Source: Escherichia phage SUSP2
Direction: 5' to 3' (one strand)
DNA length: 64,000 nucleotides
Sequence record: KT454806
The position numbers and the translations under genes are program-made. Under the pieces are notes generated by a model. It was not told the origin of the DNA. It searched no databases and saw nothing but the letters and a program-made list of their open reading frames with translations. The number at the start of each line of letters is the position of its first letter. Positions within the stretch are counted from its first letter, which is position 1. Positions 47,709 to 52,662 of the stretch are shown here, piece by piece.

Positions 47709-48329
47709 TTACATCACTTCTTTGAGCATTGCTCTCAACGAGGTCTTAGTCGTCTGGAAGAAGTGTGTGAATCCATTGTGACGTTCTCTTACCTGAAGCA
47801 TTATCTGGTCACCCTTAATTGGGTGTGAACTGATGTGGTATTCATTCAGGTTCAATACTGCACTTCCACCTTCAAAGATGTGACTCAGGTACGTAGCATC
47901 AATAAACTCTTCTTTACCTGTGACCTTGATACAGACACCTCTATTAACTCGTTTAGGATTGATATCTTCCATAACAAGCATTTGTTGTCCACCAAGAGAA
48001 ACCATAGTGAACTCTTTACGGTTAATCTGTTTAACGTACATTTCAAGTTTCTGCAAAGTATCTTTATAGAACGGATAAGACTTCTTAACAAAGATACCTT
48101 CAAGCGGCTCTTTACCATCTACAAACTCTCTTGAATGTCTAAGAGACATTACAATTTGTTGAAGCTGGTCTCTACATTCCGGTGAAAGATAGTTATCAAT
48201 ATCTTCCAAACTCAGTACCAAGTACTTTCTCTCTAACTCAAATTCTTTAGTCATACCAACCCCTTTCAACGTCTTTATAGTAAACTTTATCATTTCCCAA
48301 TGCTGTTCAGTGATTAGCATAATCTTCAC
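47709..48329 (-). CDS. hypothetical protein
   Basis: 206 aa; last gene of minus cluster. Confidence 0.5.
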   Translation of the reverse strand: MKIMLITEQHWEMIKFTIKTLKGVGMTKEFELERKYLVLSLEDIDNYLSPECRDQLQQIVMSLRHSREFVDGKEPLEGIFVKKSYPFYKDTLQKLEMYVKQINRKEFTMVSLGGQQMLVMEDINPKRVNRGVCIKVTGKEEFIDATYLSHIFEGGSAVLNLNEYHISSHPIKGDQIMLQVRERHNGFTHFFQTTKTSLRAMLKEVM

Positions 48330-48793
48330 CGAACTATTTCATAATGTGGTATAGAGTAAGCTTTATCGCCAGACGACATAACTAAATCTTCTTTCGTCAC
48401 AAGGAATCTGATTCCACAAAGATGAGCATATGACTTAGCATACTCAAAAATTTTAATGAGGTATGTACCGTCGTTGTACACAGCTTCTACCTCACCTTTT
48501 GCAACAATCTGTGCGGTCTGGAAATCCTTAATCTGATAGAGGTTACCAACTTTCACTGAAGGTTTCATCTCAGGTTCTTTGAACTCTGTACCAACCTTTA
48601 TGTCGCCTATCAAGTGAGAACTCTCAAAAGCTACATAGTTCATATAAGCCTCTGAACACTCCCAGATAAAACTTGAGACAAGAACCTTGGCAGCATGTCT
48701 TGAACAGTTCAGCTTGTCACAGATTTCTTTGTGCATCTCATCTTTAGTGGAATTGTCCAGCATTGCTTTACGAACGATTTCTTTAAGTTTCAT
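48326..48793 (-). CDS. hypothetical protein
   Basis: 155 aa; ATGA overlap with neighbours. Confidence 0.5.
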   Translation of the reverse strand: MKLKEIVRKAMLDNSTKDEMHKEICDKLNCSRHAAKVLVSSFIWECSEAYMNYVAFESSHLIGDIKVGTEFKEPEMKPSVKVGNLYQIKDFQTAQIVAKGEVEAVYNDGTYLIKIFEYAKSYAHLCGIRFLVTKEDLVMSSGDKAYSIPHYEIVR

Positions 48794-49206
48794 AGTTTAC
48801 CCTTAGCAATCTTCTCAAAAGTTTCAAAGGAGAGTTTACCGGATTTCAGATGTGGCACAAGCATCTCAGCAGCCATATCAACATCTACAGCAACTGTCAT
48901 AACTTGTTCTTCATAGTCACTCATCAGGATTTCAACAGTTTTAGAGTCCTTCGAAGGAAGTTCTAAGAACATATCAAACTCTTTACTATCAGGATGTGCT
49001 TTACCACGCCATAAACCTTGCATGTTGAATGAAATATCTTCACCCTGTGCAAAGTTGAAGCCTTCTATTTGAAATTCTTGAAGAATTGTGCAGATTATAG
49101 GGTACTCTGTTTCTGCCTCACTGATTCCTTCAACCATTACAGTTGTGGCAACAACATCTGCTAGAGTACTTTTAACATTTACAATTTTACCAACTAAGTG
49201 TTTCAT
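48790..49206 (-). CDS. hypothetical protein
   Basis: 138 aa. Confidence 0.5.
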   Translation of the reverse strand: MKHLVGKIVNVKSTLADVVATTVMVEGISEAETEYPIICTILQEFQIEGFNFAQGEDISFNMQGLWRGKAHPDSKEFDMFLELPSKDSKTVEILMSDYEEQVMTVAVDVDMAAEMLVPHLKSGKLSFETFEKIAKGKL

Positions 49207-49258
49207 TTTCGCTACCTTGTTTGGTTAAGAGGGGCTATCAAGTAACCCCTTCAAGATT

Positions 49259-49486
49259 TTACTCAGAATCCTCAGATTTCTTCTCAGTCTTCTTCGTTTT
49301 CTTTTCAGCTTTCTTCTCAACTTCTGGTTTTGATTCTACAGTAGCTTCAATAGCAATGTCCAGAAGTTTTGAAAGGTCAGCTTTAAGAACCGTTACAGGT
49401 TGTTCGTTGTAGTAGTTCTTATCAAGGTGCTCTTTCAGTTCGTTCAGAGAGCTAAAGCCGAATGGCTGGATAGGTGTCTTAATCAT
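49259..49486 (-). CDS. hypothetical protein with lysine/glutamate-rich tail
   Basis: 75 aa. Confidence 0.45.
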   Translation of the reverse strand: MIKTPIQPFGFSSLNELKEHLDKNYYNEQPVTVLKADLSKLLDIAIEATVESKPEVEKKAEKKTKKTEKKSEDSE

Positions 49487-49560
49487 TTATCACTCCTTAT
49501 AAGCATCTTTCAGGATTGCCTGATTAATCATATCAGCAATTGCATAACGGATACATACAG

Positions 49561-50285: not shown

Positions 50286-50968
50286 TCGTTCACCATAGCG
50301 TTGTAGAACTGACGTTGAATTTCTTCAGCAATCTGATAAGGTGTTAAACCAGCTTTAATCATCATCCTCACGGTGTACTCAATATCTCCGTGTTTTACTA
50401 CTCTCTCCGTGATAAACGCTGCTTCTCTCACCTCTTCAGCAGATTTTACAGCCTCTTCACATTTACTTGTCAACATTGAATCAAGTTTTGTTTGAGGTGT
50501 GAAGTAGTGGTGATGTTGACTGCCTGAAGAGAAAGCTTTGAAGAAGTCTTGGGCTTTGTCAACAACTACTGAAGCTGCGCCATTAGCATCTGCCTTAGTT
50601 GTGAAACGTGCTGTACCATAGTCATGTTTAGGCAGGTCTTCTGCTTTTAGGGCAGGTGCTTCACATGTATCCTTCGAGATTTCACTTTTATTATCTTGTA
50701 CAACACTCAGGCTTAACATGAGGGCATCCTTCCATGTACCAGTAAACATGCCTCTGTGAAAATCATCAGTTGAGTAAACTTGACCAGCATAAATCCTCTG
50801 CTCAACATTGTTGACCATGAATGTCATATTTGCTATTGGTTTAAAGTAAACTCTTCCAGTGTCTGATACAAATGTCACATCTGCATAAACTGTATCAGCA
50901 CCAGCTATTGAAAATCGAGATGTGTTAGCAACATTGATAGTTATTACATCACCTTTTTGTACTTTCAT
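50282..50968 (-). CDS. hypothetical protein
   Basis: Start at GAGGAAAG-preceded Met (228 aa). Confidence 0.5.
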   Translation of the reverse strand: MKVQKGDVITINVANTSRFSIAGADTVYADVTFVSDTGRVYFKPIANMTFMVNNVEQRIYAGQVYSTDDFHRGMFTGTWKDALMLSLSVVQDNKSEISKDTCEAPALKAEDLPKHDYGTARFTTKADANGAASVVVDKAQDFFKAFSSGSQHHHYFTPQTKLDSMLTSKCEEAVKSAEEVREAAFITERVVKHGDIEYTVRMMIKAGLTPYQIAEEIQRQFYNAMVNE

Positions 50969-51046
50969 TTTACTTTCCTCGCATATGAAAAAGGGACTAC
51001 CCTTAAGTAGCCCCATCATATAGAAATCTGTATACTGCTGTCAAGA

Positions 51047-51637
51047 TTATTTTTTCGGCAGCAATGCACTACGTCTGTTTCGTTCATTCTCAAGCATGGA
51101 GATAAAGTCATCTTTAGCACCACGCCAAGGGCTAAACCCAGGAATATGCTCACGGATAGCTTCAACAACAGTCTTCAGAGCATTGTTTTTCATCCACCAA
51201 TCAGGACTCGAAGCAGCAGTCACGTAGAACTGTGCATCATCTGTCAAAACTGGTTCAGTAATGCAAGGAGAAATGTACGTGGTGATGATTGCACCACTGT
51301 TCAGGTAATATGTACGTTTCAGAACCTTTTCAAGCAGTTTGTGCAGGTCACCAAACAGTGAAACTACGTCACGGTGGTTAATATCCTTGTCAAGAGTTGC
51401 ACGATACTTCAAAAGTGCTGCATCAACTTCTTTGTCGTTATACTTGAAGTACTGAACTTCTTCGATAACACATGCAGAGATGTTGTTAACGTTCATCGTC
51501 ACTGTACAAACCTTTGCAGGTGAGTTAACAGTTGGTTGGAATGCTGCAAGAATACCTTCAATGTTACCAAAGTGTTGTACAAGGGTAACTTGTGGCATAA
51601 ACTCTTCTTGATTCTCTGGCTTTACTTCTTCAGACAT
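51047..51637 (-). CDS. hypothetical protein
   Basis: 196 aa; GAGGAAA RBS. Confidence 0.5.
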   Translation of the reverse strand: MSEEVKPENQEEFMPQVTLVQHFGNIEGILAAFQPTVNSPAKVCTVTMNVNNISACVIEEVQYFKYNDKEVDAALLKYRATLDKDINHRDVVSLFGDLHKLLEKVLKRTYYLNSGAIITTYISPCITEPVLTDDAQFYVTAASSPDWWMKNNALKTVVEAIREHIPGFSPWRGAKDDFISMLENERNRRSALLPKK

Positions 51638-51981
51638 TATAGTTTCCTCACTAAATATTTTTTAAGTTGTGTGTTAGGAGTTTCAAAGACCTCTAAAGAA
51701 GAAATCTTGATGTTATCACCACGCATGTTTGTATGGCGGTAAATGTAGTACTCCAACATGCCTATGTGTTTTGCTGGAAGGTCATGCTTGACGAAAACTG
51801 TTACACTATCCTCAAACTGTAAGACTCTTACACCATCTTTATATTTAAACTCTTTAGGCTGCTGGTAATCTCCTAAATCACACATGATAAAGAGCCTTGA
51901 ACGGTGCTTGTCAACTTGTGAAGTCAAAGCATTCTGCATATCCGCAAAGCTCTTGTAAACAACAACGTGTAACTTAGTCAT
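51637..51981 (-). CDS. hypothetical protein
   Basis: Start at internal Met (MTKLHVVVYK..), 114 aa. Confidence 0.45.
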   Translation of the reverse strand: MTKLHVVVYKSFADMQNALTSQVDKHRSRLFIMCDLGDYQQPKEFKYKDGVRVLQFEDSVTVFVKHDLPAKHIGMLEYYIYRHTNMRGDNIKISSLEVFETPNTQLKKYLVRKL

Positions 51982-52267
51982 CACGGTATTCCCTGACGAA
52001 GAAATAGTTAACTTTGTTGCCACCAATAAGTAACTCAAAGCAGGTGTTCTCAAAAGGTGTCTTTGAGGCATCATACGTAGTGTACGGTTCAGACACCTGC
52101 TTAGTGGTGAGTTTCTTGTTGGCGGGATTTAAGAGGCCACCATAAAGTTTCTTGATAGCCTCTTCAACGACACTCCAAGTCATGTCGTCGGTTATTTCTT
52201 CGTACAGGTCGAACTCTCGTTCAAGAACAAAGTCACAAATCGGAAAGACAACCTGTAAACGACTCAT
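51974..52267 (-). CDS. hypothetical protein
   Basis: 97 aa. Confidence 0.45.
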   Translation of the reverse strand: MSRLQVVFPICDFVLEREFDLYEEITDDMTWSVVEEAIKKLYGGLLNPANKKLTTKQVSEPYTTYDASKTPFENTCFELLIGGNKVNYFFVREYRDD

Positions 52268-52662
52268 TAGCGAATTACCTGTGTGACCTGAATAGCTTCG
52301 GTAACAGAAATGTCACCAACTTTTTCTTCAGTGACAAAAGTGAAGGTTAGCTCTACAGGCTCCTTCTCAACTTCCAGTTCTACAGGAACACCATTCAGTT
52401 CATCAAAGATTGATTGGGTAGTCCAATCCTCCTGACCATCTGGGTAGTGGATAGCGTAGAACGGGAACTCTACATCATACCAACCAAATACAGGGCAACC
52501 ATCTTCATCATCACGAACACGACGCAGTGTGTTTCCAGTTTTAAGAAAACGAAGACTTAGGTTTCCGTTAGACTGGAAAATCACACAATCAACAAGTCCT
52601 TTGTTGGGGTCAACCGTGTTGTGGCGAGATGTGTCAACTTTTACAGGAATCTCTTTATTCAT
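52267..52662 (-). CDS. hypothetical protein
   Basis: Start at internal Met (MNKEIPVKV..), 131 aa. Confidence 0.45.
   Translation of the reverse strand: MNKEIPVKVDTSRHNTVDPNKGLVDCVIFQSNGNLSLRFLKTGNTLRRVRDDEDGCPVFGWYDVEFPFYAIHYPDGQEDWTTQSIFDELNGVPVELEVEKEPVELTFTFVTEEKVGDISVTEAIQVTQVIR

Follow-up and report, generated by a model that had tools for sequence, protein, structure and literature searches.

The 64,000 nucleotides (nt) of Escherichia phage SUSP2 DNA analysed here (sequence record KT454806), hereafter the window, carry between positions 47709 and 52662 a tight array of minus-strand genes in which an earlier note, made from the sequence alone, had seen no recognisable motifs. From the listing of open reading frames (ORFs), start codons, Shine-Dalgarno sequences and annotated relatives, this array holds 12 minus-strand genes, named g12 to g1. 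This corrects the 11 or so proteins of the note, the extra one being a conserved micro-ORF of 29 amino acids (aa), g5 (49490–49579). A further gene of the block, g13 (52655–53053), lies between the end coordinate given in the note and the terminator that follows the endolysin. Sizes once put at 73–245 aa become 29–228 aa after start correction: the "245 aa" ORF begins at 50968 (228 aa), the 145-aa ORF at 51981 (114 aa), the 164-aa ORF at 52662 (131 aa) and the 178-aa ORF at 50067 (168 aa). The array itself and its location were confirmed, as were its co-orientation with an endolysin of family GH24 on the same strand (Pfam PF00959, E = 3e-39) and the repeat-rich non-coding stretch at about 46062–47680 that adjoins it. 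The block is not one system; it is two separately controlled modules, g13–g9 (module A) and g8–g1 (module B).

Junctions inside the sub-blocks are overlaps of 1–19 nt or gaps of 2–5 nt. Every gene matches a PHROG family (E = 1e-37 to 1e-102), all of them labelled "unknown function", and the pairwise ratio of nonsynonymous to synonymous substitution rates (dN/dS) against the Felix O1, Michonne and CHB7 orthologues is 0.06–0.37 for every gene, the micro-ORF included. Genes of the block occur in about 250 phage records. Judged by their tight junctions, PHROG matches and dN/dS values, the ORFs of the block are real genes.

Over 47–53.6 kb the nucleotide identity is 91–94% to the Suspvirus genomes phiSUSP1, CHB7, mistaenkt and PC79-13, and about 76% to Felixounavirus and Mooglevirus genomes. 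By its sequence, the window is that of a phiSUSP1/SUSP2/CHB7-like myovirus of the Ounavirinae. The surroundings agree with this assignment and include the GH24 endolysin, a protein with immunoglobulin (Ig) domains and an island of 25 transfer RNA genes at 58.1–63.6 kb. Orthology and synteny are clear: the leftward unit maps gene by gene onto Felix O1 ORF40–ORF24, with the block as ORF34–ORF24, the endolysin as ORF35 and the Ig protein as ORF36. The equivalents of the unit are gp128–gp112 in Bas63, agp129–agp112 in SUSP1 and gp23–gp5 in Sf14, and those of the block are Bas63 gp112–122, SUSP1 agp112–123 and Sf14 gp5–18. Translated searches (tblastn) of the block against Felix O1 ORF24–34 gave identities of 47–76% (29% for g8) with order and orientation conserved. 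The "40-24" unit is one of four Felix O1 transcription units, with terminators t38, t35, t29 and t23 (Whichard et al. 2010, PMC3185647), and the positions of these terminators coincide with those found in the window. The locus is, then, already known as a conserved cluster of uncharacterised genes of Felix O1-like phages and the Ounavirinae. The block itself is an ordinary find, in which g9 is the lead worth following and g13 a secondary one.

The lack of recognisable motifs reported earlier was borne out by searches of Pfam, NCBIfam, PADLOC and the PDB. No block protein scored above the curated Pfam cut-offs. A Poly_export match for g8 (E = 3.5e-4) was rejected as short and at 21 bits against a cut-off of 28, and matches of g9 to DUF5092 and g6 to DUF2663 were rejected as short and below the curated cut-offs. 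NCBIfam and Rfam returned nothing for the block. The sequence search of the block proteins against the PDB gave zero matches at E ≤ 1, and profile searches against the PDB for g9, g13 and g1 gave nothing below E = 0.01. PADLOC, with 10 proteins scanned (all but g9, g11 and g5), gave no credible match; for g3, matches to PglX (E = 0.0025) and ThsB (E = 0.0042) were rejected as marginal and short, and nothing was returned for the other nine.

Intrinsic terminators mark out the block. The first, which follows the endolysin on the minus strand (53075–53096; t35 of Felix O1), has a 9-bp GC-rich stem and a U-run, with a folding free energy (dG) of -14.8 kcal/mol that none of 200 shuffled sequences equalled; it is also annotated in Michonne and forms the natural upstream boundary of the block. 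A second minus-strand terminator (50993–51014; t29 of Felix O1; dG = -14.1 kcal/mol, 1 of 200 shuffles as stable) divides the block internally. A bidirectional terminator on both strands (47683–47700; the t23 region of Felix O1; dG = -12.2 kcal/mol) ends the unit. Together with a hairpin at 54847–54860, all of these have U-runs, with dG of -11.4 to -14.8 kcal/mol and 0–4 of 200 shuffles as stable. That the block is bounded by terminators is therefore correct for both flanks, although the upstream one lies beyond the end given in the earlier note and a third is internal. A hairpin between g4 and g3 (49230–49250, minus strand; dG = -11 kcal/mol) is weak and unconvincing as a terminator, having a z-score of -1.4 and no U-run.

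The internal terminator abuts the -10 box of a sigma70-like promoter that precedes g8 (51015–51044, minus strand; TTGACA-18-TATGAT, an 11/12 match to the consensus). The hexamers of this promoter are kept, with a variable spacer, in nine relatives from three genera, and the pairing of the hairpin is preserved across genera by compensatory substitutions. The promoter/terminator composite persists in Bas63 and mistaenkt, where g8 is deleted. The promoter would drive g8 to g1. Its predicted start, about 7 nt past the -10 box, falls inside the 5' arm of the terminator; since they would lack the 5' arm of the stem, the promoter's own transcripts would escape the 50993–51014 terminator and those from upstream would stop.

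The favoured explanation, to which a probability of roughly 0.6 is assigned as a whole, is that the block forms the distal part of the Ounavirinae leftward "40 to 24" unit, lying beside the region where a relative has its terminal repeat and transcribed towards that region. Module A (g13-g12-g11-g10-g9) would be translationally coupled and reached by read-through of the endolysin terminator, and its last gene, g9, would be the one required for progeny production, as in Bas63. Module B (g8-g7-g6-g5-g4 and g3-g2-g1) would be driven from a separate sigma70-type promoter, joined to the terminator at the end of module A, and would consist of plastic accessory genes used in particular hosts. Among its products, g6 appears to be an inner-membrane protein with its conserved domains facing the cytoplasm.

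The modules differ in their conservation. Module A was found in every genus examined at 59–77% amino-acid identity, and g11, g10 and g9 are detectable at 22–41% identity in Yersinia phage P778, where a Hoc-like gene, the endolysin and the g11-g10-g9 trio share one orientation. In a distant 85-kb viral contig the order is endolysin, small ORFs, a g9-like gene, two ORFs and a non-coding gap of about 2 kb. In Yersinia phage vB_YenM_P778, genes for TerC, a TerD-like protein and a radical-SAM protein lie between the endolysin and the trio, and the same operon would therefore take quite different cargo in that lineage.

Module B is plastic, fast-evolving and dispensable in laboratory hosts. Bas63 and mistaenkt lack g8, whose identity to its Felix O1 counterpart is only 29%, and g3 occurs among the relatives only in CHB7 and Mooglevirus, being absent from Felix O1, Bas63, SUSP1 and mistaenkt. 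The C-termini of g2 and g4 vary among relatives. Against CHB7, the number of synonymous substitutions per synonymous site (dS) is 0.6–1.2 at g8, g3 and g2 and 0.0–0.3 elsewhere. These jumps point to recent replacement of g2, g3 and g8 (48326–49206 and 50282–50968) as cassettes by recombination.

Published screens supply the fitness data. The Bas63 knockouts come from a preprint supplement (PhageMaP), in which fitness below 0 was scored essential; the hosts are Escherichia coli MG1655, a third sheet that is BW25113 by elimination, and S17-1, whose score range is compressed. Knockout of gp118, the g9 orthologue, scored -2.7 to -2.9 on MG1655, -2.4 to -2.9 on the third host and -1.3 to -1.6 on S17-1, and was also negative in two hosts of the defence panel. 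On MG1655, where DNA polymerase scored -2.5 and the major capsid protein -3.6, g9 thus equals the polymerase in essentiality, and it is essential in every Bas63 host seen. Knockout of gp122, the g13 orthologue, scored about -0.9 on MG1655, -2.5, -3.0 and -0.8 on the third host and -1.1 to -1.3 on S17-1. The g13 gene is thus strongly required in some hosts, with a knockout effect of -0.9 to -3.0 by host. Polarity on g9 was rejected as the simple cause of this phenotype, because knockouts of the intervening g10 and g11 orthologues are about neutral (g11, neutral to -1). The g12 orthologue (gp121) was mildly to moderately negative and noisy, and the g1 orthologue (gp112) slightly negative and noisy. 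On MG1655 and the third host, knockout of the g2, g4, g5, g6 and g7 orthologues gave neutral or positive scores. The PhageMaP authors drew attention to gp114 (g4) and gp116 (g6), whose importance was relatively greater on S17-1; gp118 and gp122 are not discussed by them.

In the CRISPRi-ART screen of SUSP1, agp112–agp121 and agp124–129 were "Not Fit", and none of agp112–129 is among the 19 Fit genes. Guides against agp119 (g9) scored -4.81, the most negative value among the rows listed, where needed genes score about +2.4. The value is the opposite of host protection, since guides against needed genes score positive. Guides against agp132 were also a strong negative outlier at -3.69, with other non-required genes at about -1.2 to +1.0 among the rows listed, and the CRISPRi-ART paper explains neither outlier.

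These data divide the earlier suggestion of accessory or host-interaction functions. It suits g8–g1, which are dispensable in the Bas63 knockouts and SUSP1 knock-downs, variable and fast-diverging, with the S17-1 effects of g4 and g6. It does not suit g13–g9, which are present in every genus examined and include the essential g9 and the strongly required g13. The proposed late timing is weakly supported, because the reverse transcription polymerase chain reaction (RT-PCR) data for Felix O1 are noisy and mostly at 25 min, the conserved promoters resemble those for sigma70 and no copy of the T4-type late motif (TATAAATA) was found in the unit. In those data most block orthologues appear at 25 min ("middle"), ORF30, ORF36 and ORF37 at 60 min and ORF31 at 5 min (PMC3185647); the table is unreliable in that the major capsid gene is placed at 5 min. 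Time-resolved transcriptome or transcript-mapping data for the Ounavirinae were sought in the literature and none were found.

The essential g9 gene (51047–51637, minus strand) encodes a protein of 196 aa and corresponds to Felix O1 ORF30, Bas63 gp118 and SUSP1 agp119. It is always in the endolysin operon. The family is small, with 17 clusters at ≥58% identity among 5.8 billion sequences and only 12 matches to a profile search in 1.84 billion representatives. Across remote members the invariant residues are G115, W147-W148, P166-x-F-x-P-W171 and D176, a pattern more in keeping with a binding surface than with an active site. An AlphaFold2 model from a wider alignment (predicted local distance difference test, pLDDT = 82; predicted template modelling score, pTM = 0.73) is globular α/β, with a five-stranded sheet against helices and the first 20 residues disordered. 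Searched against a library of viral structures, the model matched its own family and Erwinia phage MM7 Gp098 only (16% identity, template modelling score 0.60). By fold, MM7 therefore has a relative of g9, and the family extends to the Erwinia branch; no solved structural relative was found.

Most likely, g9 is a non-catalytic binding factor that acts late in infection. The leading guess at a specific role, a tentative one, is a restraint on premature lysis or on destruction of the cell. Restraint of lysis is compatible with the data: g9 is essential for progeny, non-virion and part of the endolysin operon, and more host cells are lost when it is knocked down. Regarded as about equally likely is that g9, with g13, is a helper in morphogenesis or DNA maturation with no role in lysis; an assembly chaperone, a packaging or terminal-repeat processing factor and a late-transcription factor share that possibility among them. 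Such a helper would be essential yet absent from virions, as g9 is, and g9 is co-transcribed with a capsid decoration gene and is never more than a few genes away from the non-coding region in which phage HP1 has its terminal repeat. Felix O1, moreover, has neither an assigned small terminase subunit nor an assigned late regulator. However, the SUSP1 knock-down of g9 is opposite to those of structural genes (-4.81 against about +2.4). The DUF5681 gene (ORF41), which from its usual annotation we take to be the better small-terminase candidate, is essential in both screens. More doubtful still is that g9, possibly with g13, represents a new class of essential non-virion phage factor restricted to Felix O1-like myoviruses and sister groups. 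On that proposal it would either keep the cell from being destroyed before assembly is complete or act on the neighbouring terminal-repeat region in DNA maturation, with a fold that has no solved relatives and a function that no described family covers.

Several points weigh against the two-module explanation and the role in lysis proposed for g9. The biochemical roles of all block proteins, the promoter activity, the start sites and the membrane topology are inferred, and promoter-like sites as a class are not enriched, 27 having been found where shuffled sequences lead to an expected 27.2. The essentiality data come from orthologues 59–76% identical, in another genus, and from a preprint supplement only; polar effects of the barcode insertions may contribute, although the neutral g10 and g11 knockouts speak against polarity for g13. 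No block gene is discussed among the PhageMaP defence counters or triggers. CRISPRi-ART did not call g9 "Fit", in a screen with acknowledged false negatives, and the -4.81 of agp119 could be a guide artefact. Finally, known antiholins can as a rule be lost without killing the phage, and a restraint on lysis would be unusual for an essential gene.

The g13 gene (52655–53053, minus strand; Felix O1 ORF34, Bas63 gp122, SUSP1 agp123; phrog_4266) starts at an ATG at 53053 with a GGAG Shine-Dalgarno sequence and encodes 132 aa, a length shared by all of its homologues; no PDB or Pfam relative was found. The g12 gene (52267–52662, minus strand; 131 aa; ORF33, Bas63 gp121; phrog_4348) has orthologues that the mistaenkt record and PhageMaP's table for Bas63 call "D-alanyl-D-alanine carboxypeptidase". 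A peptidase of the M15/VanY type was rejected: there is no Pfam or NCBIfam peptidase match even at E ≤ 1, and the invariant segments DGCPVF.W and HYPDG.EDWTTQ lack the H-x-H or H-x(n)-D pattern of a zinc motif. The label is a propagated annotation error. The g11 gene (51974–52267, minus strand; 97 aa; ORF32, Bas63 gp120; phrog_4385) is 41% identical in its N-terminal part to ORF147 of Yersinia phage P778, and g10 (51637–51981, minus strand; 114 aa; ORF31, Bas63 gp119; phrog_4040) is 30% identical over its full length to ORF146 of the same phage.

All genes of module B are likewise on the minus strand. The first, g8 (50282–50968; 228 aa; ORF29; phrog_5380), is a variable cassette with dS of 0.59 against CHB7, and its SUSP1 knock-down was Not Fit. 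The dispensable g7 (50064–50285; ORF28, Bas63 gp117; phrog_4459) encodes a basic protein of 73 aa (isoelectric point 9.7) with invariant segments CYGK..GD...C, containing two cysteines, and VTPRGK. The micro-ORF g5 (49490–49579; Bas63 gp115) overlaps the 3' end of g6 by 19 nt, is conserved in all seven relatives aligned with dN/dS of 0.07–0.18, is annotated in SUSP1, CHB7, Bas63, Sf14 and Michonne, and is very likely translated. In g4 (49259–49486; 75 aa; ORF26, Bas63 gp114; phrog_4457) the N-terminal 50 aa are conserved and the K/E-rich tail is variable. For its orthologue, PhageMaP reported a weak XseB-like fold resemblance and conditional importance on S17-1. The sporadic cassette g3 (48790–49206; 138 aa; phrog_7193) is 62% identical in CHB7 (dS = 1.17) and 34–37% in Mooglevirus. 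The dispensable g2 (48326–48793; 155 aa; ORF25, Bas63 gp113; phrog_4713) has an N-terminal 50 aa that also match phrog_9565 and a variable C-terminus. The last gene of the unit, g1 (47709–48320; 203 aa; ORF24, Bas63 gp112; phrog_4330), also matches phrogs 7810, 7432 and 5992 over residues 27–100, and its 117 homologue clusters are all Ounavirinae-like hypotheticals without a Pfam domain; its sequence is 100% identical to that of a SUSP2 protein.

The remaining module B gene, g6 (49561–50067, minus strand; ORF27, Bas63 gp116), encodes a membrane protein of 168 aa and raises the question of lysis in another form. Hydropathy analysis placed one window above threshold (residues 83–113), and a second span at about 133–152 was read by eye from the sequence and alignment. 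The protein has a highly conserved 95-aa N-terminal domain, variable membrane spans, a KKR-rich tail and a conserved EEVSKECNL end, and the positive-inside rule suggests a topology with both termini in the cytoplasm. It could be argued that the block is the missing lysis cassette, with g6 as holin or antiholin and its neighbours as lysis regulators working with the endolysin. In favour are the position of the block immediately downstream of the endolysin, the two hydrophobic spans and highly charged C-terminus of g6, the lack of a recognised holin-lysin cassette in Felix O1, and knock-down and knockout data for g9 that are compatible with lysis control. Against this, the g6 orthologue (gp116) knockout is neutral to positive in three hosts, with scores between +0.5 and +1.1 in two of them and near -0.2 on S17-1. 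Other genes carry both the "holin" label and a phenotype (Bas63 gene 29, -1.4 to -1.9), spanins map elsewhere, and the lysis genes of the group are described as scattered around the genome. A conserved cytoplasmic domain of 95 aa is atypical for a holin, and membrane spans are absent from the other block proteins. With a neutral knockout, and with the phenotype lying in other holin candidates, g6 is probably not the main holin, and a lysis cassette in the block is improbable.

Less probable by a good margin is that the whole block is one multi-protein system, such as an anti-defence island or a machine with cooperating parts. In its favour, the genes share one orientation, are closely packed and syntenic across genera, and are all of unknown function. 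Yet g9 is essential and its neighbours g10, g7, g6, g4 and g2 are neutral, a conserved internal terminator and promoter separate two expression units, and g8 and g3 were gained or lost independently and exchanged by recombination. The validated defence counters of Bas63 lie elsewhere (g77, g79, g80, g84, g85 and g130), and PADLOC gave no credible match.

There is very little chance that the block encodes minor virion, internal or ejected proteins missed by annotation, a reading that has been largely refuted. The unit does hold one true virion protein encoded outside the structural module, the decoration protein Hex-Dec, and Felix O1 gp23, encoded across the non-coding region, was seen in virions by mass spectrometry (MS). 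In the whole-virion MS of Felix O1, however, gp23, gp36 and proteins of the structural module were detected and none of gp24–34 (PMC3185647). The structural table of Sf14, with MS detection, lists gp20 and gp29–55 and none of gp5–18. In the cryogenic electron microscopy (cryo-EM) study of Bas63, the sole virion protein encoded outside the structural module is Hex-Dec. All 13 block proteins were concatenated behind the Hex-Dec capsid-binding domain, which served as the positive control, and searched against every PDB chain. The Hex-Dec part matched Sf14 9c2d and 9c3a and Bas63 9ncf at E of about 1e-68, and the concatenated g13–g1 gave no match at E ≤ 1, the virion chains of Sf14 and Bas63 included. 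Most block genes are also dispensable. On the strength of the Felix O1 and Sf14 MS, the Bas63 and Sf14 cryo-EM and the controlled PDB search, the block proteins are non-virion and, on the favoured explanation, intracellular. Homology of most members to virion structural proteins, which the earlier note had named as the finding that would count against its proposal, was looked for and was absent, and the non-virion reading stands. That the ORFs are chance open frames or decaying remnants has missing annotation alone in its favour and is virtually impossible with dN/dS of 0.06–0.37 for every gene, PHROG E-values down to 1e-102, some 250 phage records and measurable knockout phenotypes.

The upstream part of the same unit (53104–55828, minus strand; Felix O1 ORF40–35) comprises g19, g18, g17, the terminator at 54847–54860, g16, Hex-Dec and the endolysin. 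Hex-Dec (53571–54455, minus strand) has Pfam Ig domains and an N-terminal domain that matches Sf14 9c2d and Bas63 9ncf (E of about 1e-68). The Bas63 orthologue of the endolysin (53104–53568, minus strand), g123, was reported as a trigger of the Ec67 retron defence, its expression being toxic only with the retron present. The g16 gene (54448–54822, minus strand; 124 aa; Felix O1 ORF37) encodes a paralogue of the capsid-binding domain of Hex-Dec that stands alone and has no Ig domains (E of about 1e-14 to 1e-16). It could be a second or competing capsid-binding protein, and it is absent from the reported virion structures. Within the window, g16 and Hex-Dec are the only pair of paralogues found.

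At the head of the unit are two tandem sigma70-like promoters (55874–55934, minus strand; TTGACT-17-TACCAT and TTGTCA-18-AATAGT), in a control region of which about 200 nt are near-identical across nine relatives from three genera. Between the "40-24" unit and the DUF5681 gene, the divergent control region (55829–56110, minus strand) is almost 100% identical across three genera and far more conserved than coding DNA. Its elements are the invariant TTGACT-17-TACCAT, a TTGTCAAG...TTGTCAA direct repeat and the palindrome GATATCCAGAAAGATATC.

At the other end, the gap at 46062–47680 is dense in phased short repeats, of the TTGTTAA type with 11-nt spacing and of the CCCTATAAAG type with 10-nt spacing, with many inverted copies. 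In the record of phage HP1 the first and last 570 bp are 100% identical and form a direct terminal repeat. This repeat aligns to 46510–47100 of the window at 75% identity, inside the non-coding region that flanks g1. The physical genome end is thus probably there: the region at 46062–47680, and 46510–47100 especially, probably holds that end together with packaging or replication signals. If packaging is as in HP1, the block would be the outermost transcription unit at one genome end, reading towards that end. Beyond the gap, an 82-aa ORF on the plus strand (45793–46041) matches Felix O1 gp23 (9.7 kDa) by position and length; gp23 was found in virions by MS though encoded far from the structural module (PMC3185647).

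Felix O1-like phages are widely used in Salmonella typing, biocontrol and therapy, and those of the SUSP type are studied as "superspreaders". Unannotated DNA of this kind makes up about one tenth of their genome. Module B, being non-structural and mostly dispensable, offers deletable space for phage engineering. From a set of "hypothetical proteins" two specific and testable targets emerge, g9 and g13; the inherited mis-annotation of g12 is corrected and the transcription of the unit clarified.

Several known systems invite comparison. Class II holins have two membrane spans, both termini in the cytoplasm and a charged C-terminus. The g6 protein is like them in its two hydrophobic stretches, in the basic segment that follows the second and in being encoded near the endolysin. 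In contrast to them, g6 carries the conserved 95-aa N-terminal soluble domain and is atypical at 168 aa, its knockout is neutral in three hosts, and other holin candidates lie elsewhere in the genome. For g9, cytoplasmic or membrane regulators of lysis timing such as P1 LydB and T4 RI and RIII offer a functional analogy: the g9 gene is in the endolysin operon, its loss abolishes productive infection and its knock-down raises host-cell loss. Unlike them, g9 has no sequence or fold similarity to anything solved and no adjacent holin.

Plastic clusters of small non-essential accessory genes are known in large virulent phages such as T4 and T5. Module B is like them in its small dispensable genes, presence/absence variation, recombinational exchange and its own host-type promoter, though none of its proteins proved homologous to one with a characterised role in accessory functions, anti-defence or exclusion. 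Module A departs from the pattern altogether. Compared with Felix O1, Bas63 and SUSP1, the window carries an extra gene, g3, absent from all three; its g8 is longer than Felix O1 ORF29, at 228 aa and 29% identity, and Bas63 has no g8; and the C-termini of g2 and g4 differ from the Felix O1-type set. With these differences, the likeness to Felix O1 ORF24–34 extends to terminators t35, t29 and t23 and to the neighbours on either side, namely the endolysin (ORF35), Hex-Dec (ORF36) and the large non-coding region.

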